NCBI GenBank assembly: GCA_004524445.1 | Contig: SDNP01000039.1 | Location: 1-21,941, forward strand | DNA from: Candidatus Thorarchaeota archaeon | GTDB taxonomy: Archaea > Asgardarchaeota > Thorarchaeia > Thorarchaeales > Thorarchaeaceae | DNA length: 21,941 nucleotides | Direction of reading: 5' to 3' | Shown: positions 2,880-10,671 of the stretch, in pieces | Position numbering within the stretch: position 1 is the first letter of the stretch | Layout: each line of letters starts with the position of its first letter | Program-made: the position numbers and the translations under genes | The notes under the pieces: generated by a model | Databases searched by the model: none | The model's input: the letters and a program-made list of their open reading frames with translations, nothing else | Told to the model about the DNA's origin: nothing

Positions 2880-2952
2880 CCAACCCTTCGATTTTGAGAA
2901 TAGAGTCGGAATGTTGATATTCCATCAGTAAACAGGCACTGTGGGAAGAAAA

Positions 2953-3303
2953 ATGCCGAGAAAAAAGAAGAATACCAAGAGAAATGCAACAATACTATTG
3001 ATATTAATTGCAGTTTCACTGGGCGTGGTCGCTTGGCACGATGGTCTCATCGGTGTAACTCCAATTAGGGACATCAATCAGGGCGATATTGATAACGGAA
3101 CCGCAGTGAGAATCAAGGGGCAAGTAACAGTGATTCTTGGTAATCTTATGACAGTCAGCGATGGCGAGGGTCACACAGTGGGATTCTCATGGTCGGGCGA
3201 TAAACCGGCACTTGATTCTATTGTAGTAATAGCCGGCGAAGTTAGCTCACCTCTTACTCTGAGTGATGTGAGCTCTGTATGGTCCGTGTGGATCTTCACC
3301 TAG
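2953..3303 (+). CDS. Small membrane-anchored OB-fold-like protein
   Basis: Basic N-terminus, one hydrophobic helix (ILLILIAVSLGVVAW), then TPIRDI...VRIKGQVT...VSDGEG...VVIAGEV, typical of exported OB folds. Confidence 0.6.
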   Translation: MPRKKKNTKRNATILLILIAVSLGVVAWHDGLIGVTPIRDINQGDIDNGTAVRIKGQVTVILGNLMTVSDGEGHTVGFSWSGDKPALDSIVVIAGEVSSPLTLSDVSSVWSVWIFT

Positions 3304-3318
3304 TAGTGCTTTTGCAAA

Positions 3319-4074
3319 TCATCGATGCAATTGAACCTCTGCGAAATCATGGATGGTTCCATCTATCTCGTGAAGGTGAAAAGAGGCGCTTCCTTCCTCT
3401 AACTCGATACGAGTATATGCTTGGGAATGTGCGCCTCTAATACGCCTCGAAAGAAGTGTACCCGTACAATACAAGGACATGTCATTAAGCTTCCAGTACC
3501 ACGGCACATGTCGGTGCCCATGTAGCACAAGAGAACAGCCCACCTCCCCTAGGACTGCCAGCAAATCTCCAGCGTCTTCGACCACATTATGCTCACGACC
3601 CGTATGTGGAATCGCTACCAAGTGATGATGCAAAGCAAATATTTTGACCTTGTCATCTTTCTTTGTGAAAAATTCCCGAATGCGGCCGTAATTTTCTCGT
3701 CCAACGTGCCCAGCATCGTTATCGGGCTCAGCACTATCGGCTGCAAACAGTGCAATGATATCATTGTCAAATGTCTTGAATCTGGAACCAAACAACTCTT
3801 CAAAGACTGATGAGCCGTAGTTTCTCTCATCATGGTTTCCAGGTATTATGATATTTGGAACATCAATCTTTAAGAATTCTCGAGCAAAATCCTCGTACTC
3901 TTCTCTGAGCCCATCACTTGTAAGATCGCCAGTCACCAAAAGGAGCGGATTGTCTGCCTCTTGACACTTCTTTTCAATTCCATCGAGAATACGTCTGAAG
4001 TCTTGAGTATGAACACCAGATTCTCCGAGATGAATGTCGCTCATATGAAATATGGTCATCTTGGATGATGACAT
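3319..4074 (-). CDS. Calcineurin-like metallophosphoesterase (Icc/CpdA-like)
   Basis: All five motifs present: SDIH, TGD, PGNHD, HHH and HGHRH. Its ATG abuts the stop of the 722-aa gene (TGA-ATG). Confidence 0.88.
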   Translation of the reverse strand: MSSSKMTIFHMSDIHLGESGVHTQDFRRILDGIEKKCQEADNPLLLVTGDLTSDGLREEYEDFAREFLKIDVPNIIIPGNHDERNYGSSVFEELFGSRFKTFDNDIIALFAADSAEPDNDAGHVGRENYGRIREFFTKKDDKVKIFALHHHLVAIPHTGREHNVVEDAGDLLAVLGEVGCSLVLHGHRHVPWYWKLNDMSLYCTGTLLSRRIRGAHSQAYTRIELEEGSASFHLHEIDGTIHDFAEVQLHR

Positions 4075-6243
4075 TCACCTGAAGCCTCCAGATACACAGG
4101 CACTATGACAAGCGCTGTGGCATGCACTGTGGCACACGCATGCGCTATGACAGGCACTGTGACACGCACTATGACAAGCGTCGTGTGAAACGCAGGCGGA
4201 GTGGCATGCATCATGAGACACACATCGACTAGTTCCATCGACTATGGGACTTAGAGGAGCTGATATCGTCTCTCCCACATTTTGGAGGATGGTTCCAATA
4301 GTGTTTGTTACATTAGACATTATTTCACCAGTAGTGGCCACTACATCGCCGACAGCTCGTCCAACTCCGGAAATGGCATTTCCAGTTGCGTCAGCTAGAT
4401 TAGAGAACCAGTCAGGAATCGGGGGTGGCGAGATTGCTCCACTTGGTTCAGTGAATACTCTGCCAACCTCATTATTATGGCGAGGATGCATATATAGCCA
4501 ATGCCACGCCCATCCACGATGATAGTATGTATCGAAATAGAAGTCAGACCGCCCATCTAGCGTTGGTTTTGATTCAAGTTCCTCCCACGCGTCATCCACC
4601 ATTCTATCATGCTCTTCCTTAGTAGCCTTGAAATCCGCATCCCATGATTTTTCTTGAACTCGGTCTGCTATCTCATCAATCATAGCATTAACCAAGTCAG
4701 GGTCAAGTTCGTTATCCGCGATTGCCTCAACGAACATCTTCTCGTAATATGTTAGGTCGTCAAATGCGATTCCAGTATCAGATACTCTAAGTGGATCAGA
4801 CGATATGACACGAACAGCCCCCTTCTTGACACAAGACATGAGAATCATTGTAACTAGTTTTTGTCGAGTCGTATTAACAAAAAAGGCGGACTCAACGGGA
4901 TCCAATTCAGCCACCGTCCCAGGTTCTCCAAACGTCTGTATTGTCATCTCGGGACTTTGATATACAGAGGTTGTTTCATCTTCCGCCCAGGTTGCACCAT
5001 AGCGTGTAGTCACACGTTTGTATGCGTAATAGACAACTCCAATGGCAACTGCTGCAAACACGCCAAGAATAATCATACTTGGTGGAATCAAAGGCGGGAT
5101 ATACTCTCGAACATATACATTGACTGAGAATGTTACCCAATCAGTTGCATTGAGATTTTCAGCCAATATTTGGAAACTGACAGTGAGTACCTGAGGAGTA
5201 TTCGCAGGGATGAAGGAGTAAGATAATGGATAATATTCCCCGCCATCTAGAGTTCCTACTAGAGTTGATGTTGAGCCAGAGGTCAAGGTCAGATTCTCAG
5301 GAACTGACACAGCTACTGTGACCCCATAGAGTTCAGAGTCTCCTATGTTGATCACATCAATGTCGATACTGAATTCTTGCTCAGCATCTGCGTTTACATA
5401 GGACTCCGCATTATACGCGAGCGCACCGGGCTGCTGGAATGGAGCGTAGAAGCTCCAATTTGTATAATGAAATACTCGGAAATGATCATAAGCTAGAAGA
5501 TCATTCTCTTCCATGCTAACGCTGAAGTTTCTCTGACTCGCCGAGGAACTCGATGGGTATGCTAACAGGTTAGTTTCTTCAAAACTACGTTGGTCGCCAT
5601 CCGATTCCTCAATTCCTTGCCGAAAGTCCTCCACGTAGCCTGCATAGTCAGCCCCAGCGGGCGTTATGCCACCGGACTCTTCTATCCAGCTCGAATTCAT
5701 CACGATGGGATATATCGCTCGAACATTCTCGTACCCAACTTGTTGTTCCCATTGAACAGGAGCCCAATTCAATACCCCAAATGTGCCAGTAACCTCTTCC
5801 TCCGTTGTTTCATCAATGAAGGTACCGGTGGTTTCTTCGATTATCCTGTTGGTGCTAAAATAGCCAAAGACAACAGTAACGGATTCTCCTTCTTGGGTTC
5901 GGGGCGTCCAATCAAGCCCATAACCATTTGATAAGACTGTGACAACCAGTAAGTATCTCTCACCTTGATATTCAACATATGCTCTATCCGGGTCATAGAT
6001 ACTAGACTCTTGAATACCCTCTAGATCGAACCCTCCAAGAGAACCGCTCAATACAGAGAAGGTCATCCAGTAAGTTACGTTTATTCGTCCATTAGGGAGA
6101 ACTACCACGTCGACTAGAATACTATCGATAGAAACTTGGGGGCTTTGTGATGGAACATGCGCGTCCACTGATGCAAAGGACACCATGACAACGATTACAA
6201 TTGATAGCATCAGTGTTTTAGTTTTGAGATTCATTTTACCCAA
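4075..6243 (-). CDS. Large type-I membrane protein, DUF2207-like, with an Ig-like domain and a Cys/His-rich C-terminal repeat tail; candidate radical SAM substrate
   Basis: Signal peptide ending SVDA; DUF2207-like start (IDSILVDVVVLPNGRINVTYWMTF); Ig/CARDB-like segment (IDVINIGDSELYGVTVAVSVPENL); TM helix IILGVFAAVAIGVVYYAY followed by KR; DUF2207-like cytoplasmic motifs (LDPVESAFF...VKKGAV...LTYYEKMFVEAI); CHSA tail ending SGGFR. AGGAG SD upstream. Confidence 0.75.
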   Translation of the reverse strand: MGKMNLKTKTLMLSIVIVVMVSFASVDAHVPSQSPQVSIDSILVDVVVLPNGRINVTYWMTFSVLSGSLGGFDLEGIQESSIYDPDRAYVEYQGERYLLVVTVLSNGYGLDWTPRTQEGESVTVVFGYFSTNRIIEETTGTFIDETTEEEVTGTFGVLNWAPVQWEQQVGYENVRAIYPIVMNSSWIEESGGITPAGADYAGYVEDFRQGIEESDGDQRSFEETNLLAYPSSSSASQRNFSVSMEENDLLAYDHFRVFHYTNWSFYAPFQQPGALAYNAESYVNADAEQEFSIDIDVINIGDSELYGVTVAVSVPENLTLTSGSTSTLVGTLDGGEYYPLSYSFIPANTPQVLTVSFQILAENLNATDWVTFSVNVYVREYIPPLIPPSMIILGVFAAVAIGVVYYAYKRVTTRYGATWAEDETTSVYQSPEMTIQTFGEPGTVAELDPVESAFFVNTTRQKLVTMILMSCVKKGAVRVISSDPLRVSDTGIAFDDLTYYEKMFVEAIADNELDPDLVNAMIDEIADRVQEKSWDADFKATKEEHDRMVDDAWEELESKPTLDGRSDFYFDTYYHRGWAWHWLYMHPRHNNEVGRVFTEPSGAISPPPIPDWFSNLADATGNAISGVGRAVGDVVATTGEIMSNVTNTIGTILQNVGETISAPLSPIVDGTSRCVSHDACHSACVSHDACHSACHSACHSACVCHSACHSACHSACVSGGFR
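4078..4224 (-). repeat. Protein-level tandem repeat (CHSA)x7 + (CVSHDA)x2
   Basis: Encodes CVSHDACHSACVSHDACHSACHSACHSACVCHSACHSACHSACVSGGFR: 49 aa, 11 Cys, 9 His. Confidence 0.95.
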
Positions 6244-6257
6244 ACATTCTCCTCTTC

Positions 6258-6578
6258 CTACTCAATACTTCTGTATTCATTTTCCTCATTTAGAAGGGTT
6301 TCAGCCGATTTGATGAGTCTAGTTACCTGATTCATAACTGTACTCCGGTCCTGCCAGTCTAGGTGCTCCAATAGCTCTCTGACAGGCCCCAGGTTATCAG
6401 CGCTATTCTGCAGAATAACTTTGACAGGGGCGTGCATCCTACTGTAGAGATTATGCTTCGCCAGATATTCCTTTGAAATGCTTTCAAACAATTCAGGAAC
6501 TGTCCTGTAAGTATCTGAATGCTTGACAGTCCTCTCACGAAGCTCATAGACAACATCAGGTATCTCGACTGCAGCCAT
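6258..6578 (-). CDS. Hypothetical protein with a ribbon-helix-helix-like N-terminus
   Basis: AVEIPDVVYELRERTVKHSDTYRTVPELFESISKEYL fits the beta-alpha-alpha pattern of CopG/MetJ-like proteins. GGAG upstream; 14-nt gap to the next gene. Confidence 0.55.
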   Translation of the reverse strand: MAAVEIPDVVYELRERTVKHSDTYRTVPELFESISKEYLAKHNLYSRMHAPVKVILQNSADNLGPVRELLEHLDWQDRSTVMNQVTRLIKSAETLLNEENEYRSIE

Positions 6579-6596
6579 TTTGGAGGTGATTCTCCT

Positions 6597-6992
6597 TCAC
6601 TTCTCTCTTCGAACACGCATTACTTCTGCTTGAGCGAACGTCAAGCTCGAAAGATCTGCTTTTGCTTCAGCCCAATCGACCAAGTCCGGAAATTCCTGAA
6701 TGATACCACTCCAAACTATATGATAGACCCTCTTGAGGATGACAGTAGCATCAGTTTCCTTTCCCAAGTATTCGAAGAAGACCTTGATTTCAGCTGGCTT
6801 CTGTTGTGACATTTCTTCAGGTACATCAGTTCCGAAGCCTGAGAACGCAACCTGCAACTCCTTCAGAACATCTGATCGCTCTCTGACTCCAGCAGCTATT
6901 ACTGGCAAGTCCATATCGAAAGCACTGAAGTTCATTATCAGTTTCTTATTCTTGATTGTGCCGTATGGCAGTTTAGTTTCATTGGCGCTCAT
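6597..6992 (-). CDS. Hypothetical protein, first gene of the leftward operon
   Basis: 131-aa ORF with ATG preceded by GGTGGAG; 18-nt gap to the next gene; no recognisable family. Confidence 0.7.
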   Translation of the reverse strand: MSANETKLPYGTIKNKKLIMNFSAFDMDLPVIAAGVRERSDVLKELQVAFSGFGTDVPEEMSQQKPAEIKVFFEYLGKETDATVILKRVYHIVWSGIIQEFPDLVDWAEAKADLSSLTFAQAEVMRVRREK

Positions 6993-7142
6993 GGATTCTC
7001 TCCACCTTCTTGCGATTCTGTGGAAACATCTAACGCTGATAAGCCTTTCATTTTTTCCACACCAGCTGGTGCAGAAAGTAGCATCAATCGATAAACATTC
7101 AAGACAACCCTTAAGACCAAAGGCTTCACGGCATTCTCAACC
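6993..7142. promoter_or_regulatory. Divergent promoter region with 12-bp palindrome CACCAGCTGGTG (7060-7071)
   Basis: TATA-like AAAGGCTTATC on the minus strand (~7039-7049) and CTTAAG (~7110-7115) about 28 nt before the radical SAM ATG, suggesting a leaderless transcript. The palindrome lies between the two. Confidence 0.45.
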
Positions 7143-8576
7143 ATGACCGGATCGAACAACATTGGTGGATATGATTACAATCTGAAGGAACTCAGATGGG
7201 TCCCTAAGTTCATTGAAGAGGTGAAAGACTACTTCTTTGTAAGACCAGAAGACAAGCTTCTCATTTTACGGCCAAATAAAGTAATGCACCTCAACGAGAC
7301 AGCTCTAACGATGCTGAAGTTGCTGTTGGAAGGAAATGAACCAGTCAATGTTGTAGACCATTTTACTGAGAAGTATAATATTACTCAACAGCAGGTTCTG
7401 AATGATCTTGCTGACTTCGTTGATGACCTCATGAATATGACAAATGGAAATCAGAACGTCTACTCGTATAACACAGCCAAGATTGTTCCGTTCGGAGAGG
7501 GCGATATTGATTATCCGGTATTAAGTGAGATTGCGCTGACATATCGATGCAACAACAAATGTGAATTCTGCTACGCCTATTCGCCTTATAGAGAGAGCGA
7601 CGAGATGACTACCGATGAGGTGAAGAAAGTCATCGATATTATAGCCGATGATGCAAAGGCACCCAGTCTATCATTCACAGGGGGTGAACCGACGCTCCGT
7701 GATGACCTCTTTGAGCTGATCACCTACGGGAGAAAGAAAGGTCTTCGGATGAATCTCATTACGAATGGTAGAAGATGTGCAGACCCAGAATTCGTGGCTT
7801 CACTTGTGGACGCAGACTTGAACAGCGCACAGGTTTCTATCGAGGGCCCCGATGCTAAAACACATGATTCTATTGTCGGAGTTCTAGGCGCATTCGAGCA
7901 GACGGTTCAAGGGATCAAGAATCTTCGAAAAACCGATATTTACACCCACTGCAATACCACCATTTGCAAGCTTAACGTCGATCGACTAGAAGATCTTGTC
8001 GACTTTCATGCTGATGAACTCGAACTGACATACTTTAGTATGAACATGGTGATCTATACAGGGACTGCAGCGAAGAAAAGAGAGCAACTTCAAATAACAT
8101 TCTCAGAGATTGGTGATATTGTCCGTAAAGTGAAGAAGAGAGCAAATAAAAAGGGAGTTCAGTTTGTGTGGTACGCTCCGACACCAGTCTGTCTTTTCAA
8201 TCCTATTGCTCATGGGCTTGGCGCAAAACACTGTGCTGCATGTGACGGATTGATATCCGTTGATGCTGAGGGCGGTCTTTTACCCTGCTCAAGTTTCAGC
8301 GAACCAGTCGGCAATCTTCTTGAAGAGGGATTCGAAAAGGTCTGGAATAGCCGCTCAGCCAAATTCTGGAGAAACAAAGAATACGCACCCGAAGGGTGCA
8401 AAGAATGTGAATATTTCAAGTATTGTTACGGTGCCTGCCCACTCTATTTCGATGTAATGGGCTTTGAAGAAATCAAAGAGTTCTGGCCAGACAAAAACAA
8501 GGTCCTTTCTAAAATCGATAACATAAGGCTCACGCTTCGCCGTGCAATTAAAGGTGACCAGCACGGAATCACCTGA
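7143..8576 (+). CDS. PqqD/RRE-fused radical SAM/SPASM-domain protein (peptide/protein maturase type)
   Basis: N-terminal PqqD-like HLNETALTMLKLLLEG...VVDHFTEKYNITQQQVLNDLADFVDDL; radical SAM motif CNNKCEFC; FTGGEP; SPASM CAAC...LLPC...VGNL...CKECEYFKYCYGACP. Confidence 0.92.
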   Translation: MTGSNNIGGYDYNLKELRWVPKFIEEVKDYFFVRPEDKLLILRPNKVMHLNETALTMLKLLLEGNEPVNVVDHFTEKYNITQQQVLNDLADFVDDLMNMTNGNQNVYSYNTAKIVPFGEGDIDYPVLSEIALTYRCNNKCEFCYAYSPYRESDEMTTDEVKKVIDIIADDAKAPSLSFTGGEPTLRDDLFELITYGRKKGLRMNLITNGRRCADPEFVASLVDADLNSAQVSIEGPDAKTHDSIVGVLGAFEQTVQGIKNLRKTDIYTHCNTTICKLNVDRLEDLVDFHADELELTYFSMNMVIYTGTAAKKREQLQITFSEIGDIVRKVKKRANKKGVQFVWYAPTPVCLFNPIAHGLGAKHCAACDGLISVDAEGGLLPCSSFSEPVGNLLEEGFEKVWNSRSAKFWRNKEYAPEGCKECEYFKYCYGACPLYFDVMGFEEIKEFWPDKNKVLSKIDNIRLTLRRAIKGDQHGIT

Positions 8577-8627
8577 TTTCTGACGAAGACACAGGTTTCT
8601 AATAGTAGAACTGACTTCTTCATTGGT

Positions 8628-9779
8628 ATGAATCTTGAAGATGTTTTTACGCCAGCTCTACTTGTGGACTACCAGCGCCTGGAAGATAATATCAGGAAAA
8701 TGGCGAAGAAAGCTGAGAAGAACTCAGTATCACTTCGCCCACATATCAAGACACACAAATGCATCGAAATAGGTGAGATGCAGCTAAGAGCAGGAGCTCA
8801 GGGGATCACCGTCTCTACAGTTGAGGAAGCTCGAGTTTTTGCGGAACATGGTTTTCAAGATATCACGCTTGCAGCTCCACTCTGTCACGATAAGATAAAT
8901 GCGATTCTTGCCTTGTCGGAAGACACCACTCTTCGGGTCTTAATTGATCATCCAAAGACGCTTGAGATTCTAGAAAAGAGTTGTAGGAATGCAGAAACAG
9001 AAATCCAGGTGCTTCTGAAGGTTGACTGCGGGTACCACCGGGCAGGAGTAGACCCGAAGAGCGAAGAAGCAATACGGTTAGCCAGAAGTATTGCAAATGC
9101 GAAGCACCTGCATTTCAATGGAATTCTTACTCATGCAGGTCATGCATATGGCACAGAAACGGTTTCGCAAATCGAAGAAATCGCCCAGCAAGAACAGAAG
9201 GTCATGGTTGATTTCGCATCGAAGCTGGAGCGATACAGCAAAGACTTATGCTGCGAAGTGGTCAGTATCGGTTCCACCCCCACTTGCACAGTCAGCCCTG
9301 AATTTATTGAGGGCATAACAGAAATTCGCCCTGGAAATTACGTTTTCTATGATTACACACAAGTAGCCTTGGGAGTGTGCGAAATCAATCAGGTGAGCCT
9401 CAGCATCCTGAGTAGCGTTACAAGTGTCTATGATGACCATCTGGTTCTTGACACAGGGGCAACAGCATTATCAAAAGACCTAGGCGCCTCGCATCTTACA
9501 GAGCGTGTTTCATTCGGTGAGGTATTCGGTGATTACAGCAAGGGAACGTTGAATACAGATTTGAGAATTGCTTCGCTCTCTCAAGAACATGGCAAGGTAA
9601 CCGGTAAGCCTGCCATAGTTTCCAATTTTGAACCAGGTGATAGAATGCGAATACTTCCAAATCACTCCTGTCTCACTGCAAATTTGGGAAATAGATTATC
9701 TGTGGTTGAAGATGATACAGTCAAGGATATTTGGAAGATATGGAGAGGCAGATTAGAGCCCAAGCCGATTAGTGATTAG
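8628..9779 (+). CDS. PLP-dependent fold-type III enzyme, D-serine dehydratase / D-threonine aldolase (DSD1-like) family
   Basis: TPALLVD, LRPHIKTHK (PLP lysine), GSTPT, EIRPGNYVFYD, SQEHG and PNHSC (metal ligands). Confidence 0.88.
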   Translation: MNLEDVFTPALLVDYQRLEDNIRKMAKKAEKNSVSLRPHIKTHKCIEIGEMQLRAGAQGITVSTVEEARVFAEHGFQDITLAAPLCHDKINAILALSEDTTLRVLIDHPKTLEILEKSCRNAETEIQVLLKVDCGYHRAGVDPKSEEAIRLARSIANAKHLHFNGILTHAGHAYGTETVSQIEEIAQQEQKVMVDFASKLERYSKDLCCEVVSIGSTPTCTVSPEFIEGITEIRPGNYVFYDYTQVALGVCEINQVSLSILSSVTSVYDDHLVLDTGATALSKDLGASHLTERVSFGEVFGDYSKGTLNTDLRIASLSQEHGKVTGKPAIVSNFEPGDRMRILPNHSCLTANLGNRLSVVEDDTVKDIWKIWRGRLEPKPISD

Positions 9780-10466
9780 ATGCCCACAATACGGACATTT
9801 TTCCTCTTCTCCAGGTAGAACGGGCTCTTCAAGCTTGCCGCCACAATTTGGACAGGAAGTTACTGCATTAGGGAGTTCTTCGACAGCCTCCTGAGTATAG
9901 ACTACTCCAGAGTTTTCATCAATGACTCCTCGGAATTTCCCTTCTCTTGAGAGGTCGCGAAGAGTTTCAATTATCTCCTCCTCGCGCGCGTCCGTTACCT
10001 CTTGCAGCTGTTTGAAGGTCATTCTCCGTTGGGCGAAAAGAAGATGCAGCAGACTATCCCGCAGCTCGACTGAACGCGGACTTACAATTTCATTCGTGGA
10101 GCGATTCAAATATACGACAGGAAGTCGTTTTCGGGCGAGGCGTTCAGCTGCATCTGAAACCACATCTTCAGTGGTCCCCAATTCGCGAGCAGCAGCGCTA
10201 ACACTCATTCTGCCTTCGTCTTGTATCAGGGGAATCAGATCGCCACTAATATCGCTTAATTTGGCCTGTCTAGAACCTCTCGAGATGAGCCATAACCCAA
10301 TAGCTAGTTCAGGGAGAGCCAAGATTGCCCAGGCAACTAGCCCTGAAGTCAGCAGGAGTCCGAAATCGTCACTAACTCCTATTGTGCTTGTGTACACGAC
10401 ATAGCTCATGGCAAGACTCACAAAAACCAACAGCGCACCAATCAGTTGTTGCAGGCGACCACTCAT
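9753..10466 (-). CDS. Membrane protein with 2 TM helices, tandem PCI-like winged helices and a C-terminal zinc ribbon
   Basis: Two hydrophobic helices; RMSVSAAARELG...VYLNRSTNEIV and RMTFKQLQEVT...LSREGKFRGVIDENSGVVY; CPNCG...CPYCG. Overlaps the convergent PLP enzyme gene by 27 nt. Confidence 0.75.
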   Translation of the reverse strand: MSGRLQQLIGALLVFVSLAMSYVVYTSTIGVSDDFGLLLTSGLVAWAILALPELAIGLWLISRGSRQAKLSDISGDLIPLIQDEGRMSVSAAARELGTTEDVVSDAAERLARKRLPVVYLNRSTNEIVSPRSVELRDSLLHLLFAQRRMTFKQLQEVTDAREEEIIETLRDLSREGKFRGVIDENSGVVYTQEAVEELPNAVTSCPNCGGKLEEPVLPGEEEKCPYCGHLITNRLGL

Positions 10467-10671
10467 CTACTGAAACCTCATTCATGATGAAATTAGTACC
10501 TGCAATTATAGGTTGCGCCTTTATTTTGAAGGAATCAGCATATCAGATTCTGAACGCCAAAAGAGTCTTATCAAAGGAAATGTAATACTAGGATATACAT
10601 GTGTGGGCTAGGACAGAATAACTTAATTAGTAAGGTTGTATCAAATCCAAATACAACCTAGAAGGGCGTAT

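Follow-up and report, generated by a model that had tools for sequence, protein, structure and literature searches.

The window analysed here, one whole contig of 21,941 nucleotides (nt) from a Thorarchaeota genome (2.79 Mb, 90% complete), carries a gene for a radical S-adenosylmethionine (rSAM)/SPASM enzyme that is divergent from an operon encoding a single-pass membrane protein, the carrier, with a Cys/His-rich (CHSA)n tail at its C-terminus. At the protein level, the nearest relatives of the window all bear Thorarchaeota or Promethearchaeota labels. The enzyme is likely to be the dedicated maturase of this tail, which would be modified in place, and analogy with known systems suggests thioether crosslinking as the chemistry. 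In Thorarchaeota two further genes, for a 131-amino acid (aa) protein and for a 237-aa zinc-ribbon protein, are inherited with the pair, and we refer to the four genes as the module. The pairing of enzyme and tail is widespread, being found in Asgard archaea and in more than 20 bacterial phyla.

Pairing of the enzyme and the tail across genomes

We searched 400 Asgard genomes for the enzyme (matches at E ≤1e-60) and, with a DNA pattern for CHxACHxAC, for the tail. Within the thorarchaeotal family the enzyme and the tail motif show the same per-genus pattern: 55 of 86 genomes have both, 19 have neither, eight have the enzyme only and four the tail only. The tail gene of each of the four tail-only genomes is interrupted by the end of a contig or by an N-gap. 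Six of the 12 discordant genomes were inspected closely: the assembly is broken in five, and in the sixth an insertion disrupts the tail gene. In G375, which has the enzyme only, the contig ends right past the enzyme gene. The broken gene is in G349, an enzyme-only genome that is 99% complete, where an insert with an integrase-like open reading frame (ORF) cuts the tail gene after about 84 codons. The substrate gene seems to have been knocked out recently, unless the locus is misassembled. The other six enzyme-only genomes mostly have a partial enzyme match or one that starts less than about 2 kb from contig coordinate 1. The G349 insert (L028:1-3229) encodes a tyrosine-recombinase-like protein of 336 aa and two further ORFs, and the rSAM, 131-aa and zinc-ribbon genes of this genome are intact.

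The whole module has been lost cleanly in relatives. Five of them have none of its four genes (tail, 131-aa, rSAM and 237-aa zinc-ribbon), and gene order is kept on both flanks in four (G319, G321, G324 and G325) and on one flank only in G320. The kept flanks are an M29 peptidase gene or a 120-aa gene on one side and a 157-aa gene with six to eight more on the other.

Beyond the family, the Asgard genomes with an rSAM homologue (43-49% identity) are the very five that have the tail motif. In these the two genes are co-directional; they abut or overlap in two genomes, have one gene between them in two and are about 3 kb apart in G130. This layout differs from the thorarchaeotal one and shared synteny therefore cannot explain the pairing.

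Genomes, one per species, were searched for four consecutive CHxA units. There were at least 120 such stretches, and 80 loci were examined. Among the matches listed, the stretches come from Bacillota, Spirochaetota, Planctomycetota, Myxococcota, Acidobacteriota, Desulfobacterota, Chloroflexota, Omnitrophota, Aminicenantes and others, with one Thermoplasmata archaeon. A homologous rSAM gene lies on the same strand, 48-1163 nt past the tail motif, in 68 of the 80 loci, which represent species of more than 20 phyla among the matches listed. Six of the remaining 12 loci have less than 1.3 kb of downstream sequence, and two or three have spurious or broken motifs. The adjacency in other layouts and phyla, together with the co-loss, excludes mere synteny. 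The functional pairing of the enzyme and the tail, put forward in the initial annotation of this stretch, is thus supported by four lines of evidence that are independent and in agreement: co-occurrence within the family, the clean loss, and adjacency in other Asgard lineages and in bacteria.

Three bacterial contexts share a cassette of tail protein, rSAM/SPASM enzyme and a membrane protein of about 330 aa with several predicted transmembrane (TM) helices. No homologue of this third product (330-406 aa in bacterial and non-thorarchaeotal cassettes) was detectable in the thorarchaeotal loci. It has a weak similarity over 36 residues to the N-terminus of the thorarchaeotal rSAM enzyme (E 0.05). 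One cultured organism, Desulfobulbus alkaliphilus DSM 24258 (L091; NZ_JAFFQC010000005.1), has the tail motif at 3783-3833, the rSAM gene 144 nt downstream and the third gene.

The tail, its carrier and the enzyme

The tail has 11 Cys and nine His in 49 residues in a strict Cxxx register, with seven CHSA units, two CVSHDA units and a C-terminal CVSGGFR. It is unique in this genome, and a reversed-pattern control gave no matches in the 400 genomes; the motif is not a product of chance. In 11 orthologues from other genomes of the family, 46-49 of the 49 residues are identical, and the identity of the carrier body to the window protein is 53-65% in the ten orthologues from other genera and 87% in the one from the same genus. 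The tail DNA of the orthologues has 23-47 differences in 147 nt, mostly silent and including switches between Ser codon families, with 0-3 aa changes and, in most cross-genus orthologues, none. The seven CHSA units of the window are encoded by seven different 12-mers. Because the DNA differs while the amino acids are kept, and because the 12-mers all differ, these alignments indicate strong purifying selection on the tail peptide rather than recent repeat slippage. The tail is among the most strongly constrained sequences, which suggests an exacting function. In 454 CxxxC units from non-thorarchaeotal relatives, the first position after Cys (+1) is His in 93% and the third (+3) is Ala in 94%, and the position between them (+2) is variable (Ser 61%, Asp 24%, then Asn, His, Gly and Ala).

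The eleven Cys of the tail, at residues 674-716, and Cys471 are the only ones in the carrier, as counted earlier. The carrier ORF opens with TTG and there is an ATG three codons on, so the protein is possibly 719 aa. The signal peptide and single TM helix called previously agree with the hydropathy plot, in which the only two hydrophobic segments are a signal-like one at about 6-28 and a TM segment at about 388-408, followed by K/R. The AlphaFold2 (AF2) model has a mean predicted local distance difference test score (pLDDT) of 80.9 and consists of beta-sandwich ectodomains (36-380), a TM helix, a cytoplasmic domain and an unmodelled tail. No fold is predicted for the tail (pLDDT about 35) and helices there were not interpreted. 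The cytoplasmic domain is confident at 445-620, with a winged-helix-like start, and is followed by a long conserved helix at 634-659; modelled alone it has a pLDDT of 80.4 and a predicted TM-score (pTM) of 0.77. The initial annotation had placed the tail after the TM helix and hence in the cytoplasm. Hydropathy and the model both support the cytoplasmic side, but a folded domain of about 250 aa lies between the helix and the tail.

Residues 33-268 of the ectodomain (nt 5440-6147) resemble the second luminal domain of yeast Ost1 (6ezn_A; Z 16.8, root-mean-square deviation 3.1 Å over 190 residues) and, at Z 14-15, human ribophorin I. The ERAP1 N-domain, from the next unrelated group, follows at Z 12.8. 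Structure comparison of the model identifies residues 274-382 as a macroglobulin/CARDB-like Ig domain. An Ost1/ribophorin-I-like ectodomain in an Asgard archaeon has a possible bearing on the origin of the eukaryotic membrane machinery. The Ost1-like region can be aligned in bacterial relatives and so need not be eukaryote-specific. For the cytoplasmic domain, Foldseek gave no match in the PDB at E ≤0.001. The top two proteins in both Foldseek and VIA were the PI4P-binding Golgi proteins GOLPH3 (Z 5.9) and Vps74 (Z 5.3), with the next row at 3.4; these scores are too weak to name the fold and we rejected this assignment.

The carrier had also been described as DUF2207-like. There is no direct Pfam match to DUF2207 on it even at E up to 1, but it aligns end to end (E 2e-40) with P0148, a relative whose residues 32-175 pass PF09972 DUF2207_N (26.8 against a cut-off of 24.4 bits); support for the description is therefore indirect and comes through homology. 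DUF2207 clusters are among the structural neighbours of the carrier in the Atlas, with TM-scores of 0.25-0.39. The papers found on DUF2207 describe only a stress/biofilm phenotype in S. mutans and an unrelated OvoA neighbourhood.

Pfam recognises three domains in the enzyme: PqqD, residues 41-97 (E 4e-8; 33.9 bits, cut-off 23.4); Radical_SAM, residues 132-288 (E 1.6e-25); and SPASM, residues 366-423 (E 3e-7; 30.9 bits, cut-off 21.5). With C136, C140 and C143, they reproduce the architecture read earlier from the sequence (PqqD-like domain, CxxxCxxC and SPASM). In an alignment of 28 family members from archaea and bacteria, C136-x3-C140-x2-C143 is invariant in all 28, as are C364, C382, C419, C422, C428 and C432 of the SPASM region; C350 is found in 25. 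Residues R34, D37 and N51 of the PqqD-like domain, a RiPP (peptide made by ribosomes and modified after translation) recognition element (RRE), are invariant in archaeal and bacterial members alike. The N-terminal 125 aa match NCBIfam PqqD-family chaperone models, below the cut-offs of those models. By sequence criteria, then, the enzyme falls in the class of RRE-dependent rSAM/SPASM maturases: it has the cluster motif, the SPASM domain, the RRE and a co-inherited neighbouring Cys-rich substrate candidate.

The top NCBIfam models for the enzyme are AhbD (156.9 bits) and NirJ2 (143.2 bits), both with cut-offs of 500, followed by NirJ (110.6 against 515). Membership of the Ahb/NirJ group, raised as a possibility in the initial annotation, is not indicated by these scores, which place the enzyme outside it. 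Models for PqqE, ScmE, HxsC, StsB and PapB score 92-123 bits and none passes, the PapB model (NF047865) scoring 92.2 against a cut-off of 340. TIGR04463 (CrpC family) is outside the best 25 of 85 matching models and so scores below 75.6 bits, and the SkfB and AlbA models, seen on a bacterial relative, are below cut-off too. When the family profile was compared with the PDB, SkfB was best (111 bits), followed by PqqE (94); CteB and SuiB scored 62 each. Since no NCBIfam model passes and SkfB and then PqqE are the best solved matches, the enzyme can be assigned, on its profile scores, to an unnamed clade in the peptide/protein-maturase part of the SPASM superfamily.

There is a sister system in Loki-, Heimdall- and other Asgard archaea. 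Distant rSAM homologues (33-39% identity) overlap the end of a 500-634-aa membrane protein with a (CA)n-GGGR tail in six of eight loci. The carrier type is the same (signal peptide, ectodomain, TM helix, cytoplasmic region and a Cys-repeat tail with a GG-x-R end) and the rSAM enzyme is of the same family. The sister system differs in its Cys-Ala tail without His, in the divergence of its enzymes and in a class-I methyltransferase-like gene, found downstream of the rSAM gene in most loci. Four of the six have, directly upstream, a gene for a small TM and zinc-ribbon protein. A quick maximum-likelihood tree groups the CH- and CA-linked rSAM enzymes into one family against the other rSAM paralogues of the genome that holds the window (Shimodaira-Hasegawa-like approximate likelihood-ratio test 100), and the CA-linked enzymes form one supported clade within it. 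One lineage (G130, L015:13143-14465, and protein P0179) has a hybrid tail, in which CH units, of the form CH[SN]A, are followed by CACACACAGGGW (CVSCACACACAGGGW); both tail types are thereby present in one protein.

Contigs from salt-lake RNA libraries of two studies match nt 4089-4239 in the tail region without mismatch. They also match the phosphoesterase/carrier junction (3775-4091), the carrier, the 106-aa/carrier junction (6162-6510) and the rSAM gene (7439-7647). These contigs give weak support for expression; stretches without RNA coverage (e.g. 5211-6014 and 6618-7421) are no evidence of silence.

Table 1. Coordinates of the features in the window and of related loci in other genomes
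Feature	Position (nt)	Strand	Details
Calcineurin-like metallophosphoesterase (P0003)	3319-4074	-	251 aa; abuts tail gene; Pfam Metallophos E 3.5e-15
Tail-carrier membrane protein (P0001)	4075-6243	-	722 aa
Carrier, Cys/His tail	4078-4224	-	residues 674-722
Carrier, cytoplasmic helical/winged-helix-like domain	4264-4911	-	residues ~445-660; AF2
Carrier, TM helix	5002-5082	-	residues 388-414; AF2 and hydropathy
Carrier, ectodomain (beta-sandwiches)	5098-6147	-	residues ~33-382; AF2
106-aa ORF (P0004)	6258-6578	-	Cys-free; weakly conserved
131-aa protein (P0005)	6597-6992	-	Cys-free; first operon gene
Divergent intergenic region	6993-7142		150 nt; between rSAM gene and tail-protein operon
Radical SAM/SPASM enzyme (P0002)	7143-8576	+	477 aa
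Enzyme, PqqD-like RRE	~7200-7440	+	residues ~20-100
Enzyme, rSAM core	~7536-8006	+	C136/C140/C143
Enzyme, SPASM region	~8190-8438	+	conserved C350, C364, C382, C419, C422, C428, C432
Pyridoxal phosphate (PLP)-dependent enzyme	8628-9779	+	between rSAM and zinc-ribbon genes
TM/winged-helix/zinc-ribbon protein	9753-10466	-	237 aa
131-aa homologues, bacterial loci	L046:2987-3370; L074:3621-3989; L078:3911-4291		one Aminicenantes
(CA)n-GGGR sister-system loci, other Asgard genomes	L021, L022, L023, L026, L027, L030

Proposed modification of the tail and alternative explanations

Thioether chemistry by rSAM enzymes is known mainly from small secreted peptides, and there are few whole-protein substrates. 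One of these is QhpC, a protein subunit rather than a free peptide, in which the rSAM/SPASM enzyme QhpD forms Cys-to-carbon thioethers. QhpC, however, is small and periplasmic, carries a quinone cofactor and has Cys-Asp/Glu links, with different acceptor residues. The maturases of ranthi- and sactipeptides (PapB/freyrasin, CteB/SCIFF, SkfB, AlbA) have in common with our system an RRE, an rSAM domain, SPASM or twitch domains and Cys-rich cores of short spacing, but their substrates are free exported peptides of less than about 60 aa with N-terminal leaders.

The statement in the initial annotation that there was no characterised archaeal example is outdated. The TIGR04463 member CrpC of the archaeon Methanococcus voltae is an RRE-rSAM-SPASM enzyme whose substrate is the whole Cys-rich protein CrpA (28.8 kDa), into which it introduces ranthionine-type thioethers, and co-expression of the small partner CrpB takes the modification further (PMC13692751, 2026). 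Both systems combine an archaeal RRE-rSAM-SPASM enzyme with a whole Cys-rich protein that has C-terminal repeats. However, CrpC appears to be of another rSAM family, and CrpA is soluble, with a 17-residue repeat and C-x-x-Q/D motifs, and is not a membrane protein with CHxA units.

The tail also resembles the CXXX-repeat rSAM targets (TIGR04117, PF27846), which have Cys at every fourth residue and are encoded beside an rSAM/SPASM enzyme; Cxxx repeats have thus already been tied to rSAM enzymes in silico by Pfam/NCBIfam curators. PF27846 ('tSAM_targ_Cxxx_rpt') is recorded on bacterial relatives of the carrier (P0132-P0169) and in loci L017 and L018, and the window tail has the CH[SD]A...CVSGG pattern of these PF27846-bearing relatives. 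The TIGR04117 model ('Cys-Xaa-Xaa-Xaa repeat radical SAM target protein') scores 14.4 bits on P0132 and 13.0 on P0148 against a cut-off of 50, and has no match on residues 400-722 of the window carrier at E up to 1. The targets of TIGR04117 are about 98 aa and were defined in silico, whereas in the window a 722-aa membrane protein carries the repeat as its tail. We found no literature on CHxA-tailed membrane proteins, on TIGR04117 or on Cxxx repeats with radical SAM. Specific to this window are the divergent thorarchaeotal layout, the two co-inherited accessories, the clean loss of the module and the Ost1/ribophorin-I-like ectodomain.

Taken together, the pairing, the neighbourhood and the conservation of the tail suggest that the enzyme very probably modifies the cytoplasmic tail in place. 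The Ost1/DUF2207-like ectodomain of the inserted carrier would face outwards, and the 49-residue tail and the helical domain before it (about 250 aa) would be cytoplasmic. The PqqD-like RRE may dock on the cytoplasmic region upstream of the tail, a non-canonical arrangement, as in CrpA. The rSAM cluster would then cleave S-adenosylmethionine while the SPASM clusters hold Cys thiolates, and the Cxxx units would be processed one by one via Cys-centred radical chemistry, most likely to small thioether rings. The constancy of His at +1 (three residues before the next Cys) and of Ala at +3, against a variable +2, makes either of them a likelier partner than Ser for each Cys. Once modified, the tail would stay attached to its carrier and form a rigid, His-rich appendage on the cytoplasmic side that possibly binds metal. 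The 131-aa and TM/winged-helix/zinc-ribbon proteins of Thorarchaeota are part of the same inherited unit, and they may show how the enzyme reaches its membrane-bound substrate. If this is true, there is a large and widespread class of membrane proteins with a cytoplasmic tail matured in place, beside QhpC and CrpA. The system is open to direct testing, since its core is two genes, its target is a defined stretch of 49 residues and at least one organism that carries it is in culture. A further step, which we regard as tentative and rather doubtful, is that the tail becomes an undescribed protein-borne cofactor-like structure, such as a Cys-His/Cys-Ala crosslink ladder that binds metals or relays electrons, and that it gives a widespread class of single-pass surface receptors, Ost1/DUF2207-like and shared by Asgard archaea and more than 20 bacterial phyla, their output or input device in the cytoplasm.

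Several observations weigh against modification of the tail by the enzyme. The tail lies about 265 residues past the TM helix and has no N-terminal leader, so recognition by the RRE would be non-canonical, and the sequence preceding the tail is not conserved between thorarchaeotal and bacterial members. L052 and L079 are true exceptions, in which the tail gene has no rSAM gene in the 8-kb locus; L040 has none either, but its genome has another copy of the tail gene, at L049, that is followed by one. The thorarchaeotal neighbourhood is largely conserved anyway, which makes adjacency there weaker evidence than the loss pattern. The tree was a quick one with no resolution in its backbone, and the RNA-library contigs may come from DNA carry-over. 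Finally, Cxxx and Cys/His ladders are classic metal ligands, and the conservation could reflect metal binding without any modification.

This last point is the basis of the main rival explanation, in which the tail is an unmodified metal or iron-sulfur site (a Zn, Cu or Fe store, a sensor or a cluster carrier) and the rSAM enzyme is linked to it by docking or by electron or cluster transfer, or acts instead on a small molecule or a different part of the carrier. The density and strict register of the Cys and His residues fit such a site, the Cys/His pair and Ala are what the phyla conserve, and the CrpA study suspects a metal role for its own modified product (PMC13692751). Against this, a conserved RRE and a strict one-to-one pairing in more than 20 phyla, translationally coupled in several loci, are the signature of an enzyme and its substrate, and the (CA)n sister tail has no His and yet has its own rSAM clade. 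Metal binding after modification would fit maturation of the tail without conflict, and we consider an unmodified site unlikely. It is a good deal less likely still that the tail is a membrane-tethered RiPP precursor that is modified and then cleaved away, to be released or exported as a small peptide rich in Cys. This idea, which the initial annotation offered as one outcome, has in its favour a leader/core-like logic and the likeness of the Cxxx core to ranthipeptide precursors. There are also two adjacent Gly close to the C-terminus, and 1.2 kb away lies a gene for an M29 aminopeptidase. However, release by proteolysis is left unsupported by the inspected cassettes of Thorarchaeota, other Asgard archaea and bacteria, in which no protease or exporter gene was recognised. 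The M29 gene is kept in relatives without the module, the tail is cytoplasmic, and the whole carrier of 550-920 aa, including its cytoplasmic domain, is conserved together with the tail.

We give the least weight, a very small one, to synteny without function, with the enzyme being a cofactor-type rSAM protein (AhbD/NirJ/PqqE-like) or acting on a small peptide encoded nearby. AhbD and NirJ2 are indeed its best NCBIfam matches and gene order is broadly conserved among Thorarchaeota, but both scores are far below the cut-offs, many peptide-maturase models score alike and the best solved relative is the thioether-forming SkfB. There is no free-standing ORF of 20-120 aa with at least four Cys in 2900-10600, no ORF with at least four Cys starts in the divergent intergenic region, and the 131- and 106-aa proteins have no Cys. 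The small Cys-rich ORFs near the enzyme were rejected as candidates, since each overlaps a real gene in a different frame and is free of repeats. With the co-loss and the adjacency in other layouts and phyla, this explanation is largely refuted, and maturation of the tail remains the reading that we favour.

Neighbouring genes and habitats

The gene layout is as first described, the ORF coordinates giving the same divergent gap and the same spacers of 18, 14 and 0 nt in the minus-strand operon. The 131-aa gene lies between the rSAM and tail genes in all 12 thorarchaeotal loci inspected. Across the 86 genomes of the family, the per-genus profile of the 131-aa and zinc-ribbon genes equals that of the rSAM and tail genes, and they never occur without one of the latter. 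Full-length homologues of the 131-aa protein (33-38% identity, E 1e-21 to 1e-24) are encoded directly upstream of the tail gene in three bacterial loci, which suggests that this accessory is older than Thorarchaeota. Neither Pfam nor NCBIfam offers a usable family for the 131-aa, 106-aa and zinc-ribbon proteins, and leads for the 131-aa protein from the Atlas feature search (scores ≤0.87) were discarded as being at chance level. Among the thorarchaeotal loci, BLAST found the 106-aa gene only in L004 and L010.

The 237-aa protein has two TM helices at its N-terminus, is winged-helix/PCI-like in the middle and ends with a CxxC...CxxC zinc ribbon, with weak Pfam matches to zinc-ribbon and PCI families. 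In G336 and G337 its gene is present on a different contig from the rSAM gene. In the Atlas it lies near clusters of Chloroflexota proteins of 171-174 aa (score 0.91, 197 of 256 features shared). These may be its counterparts, because Chloroflexota carry CH-tail cassettes too (L044).

Of the thorarchaeotal loci, seven have the metallophosphoesterase gene abutting the tail gene and L010 has it about 0.8 kb away; in three it was not found. G324, which is without the module, has kept it. It is thus a frequent but not an obligatory neighbour of the tail gene. The PLP-dependent enzyme has an alanine racemase N-terminal domain and a D-serine dehydratase domain, and its best NCBIfam match, to 3-hydroxy-D-aspartate aldolase, is far below the cut-off. 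Its gene is kept in four of the five relatives without the module and it is therefore probably outside the module.

DNA that is 95-100% identical to nt 3000-9000 of the window is present in freshwater-sediment metagenomes and salt-lake metatranscriptomes of other studies. This suggests that relatives of the strain live in several sediment and saline habitats.

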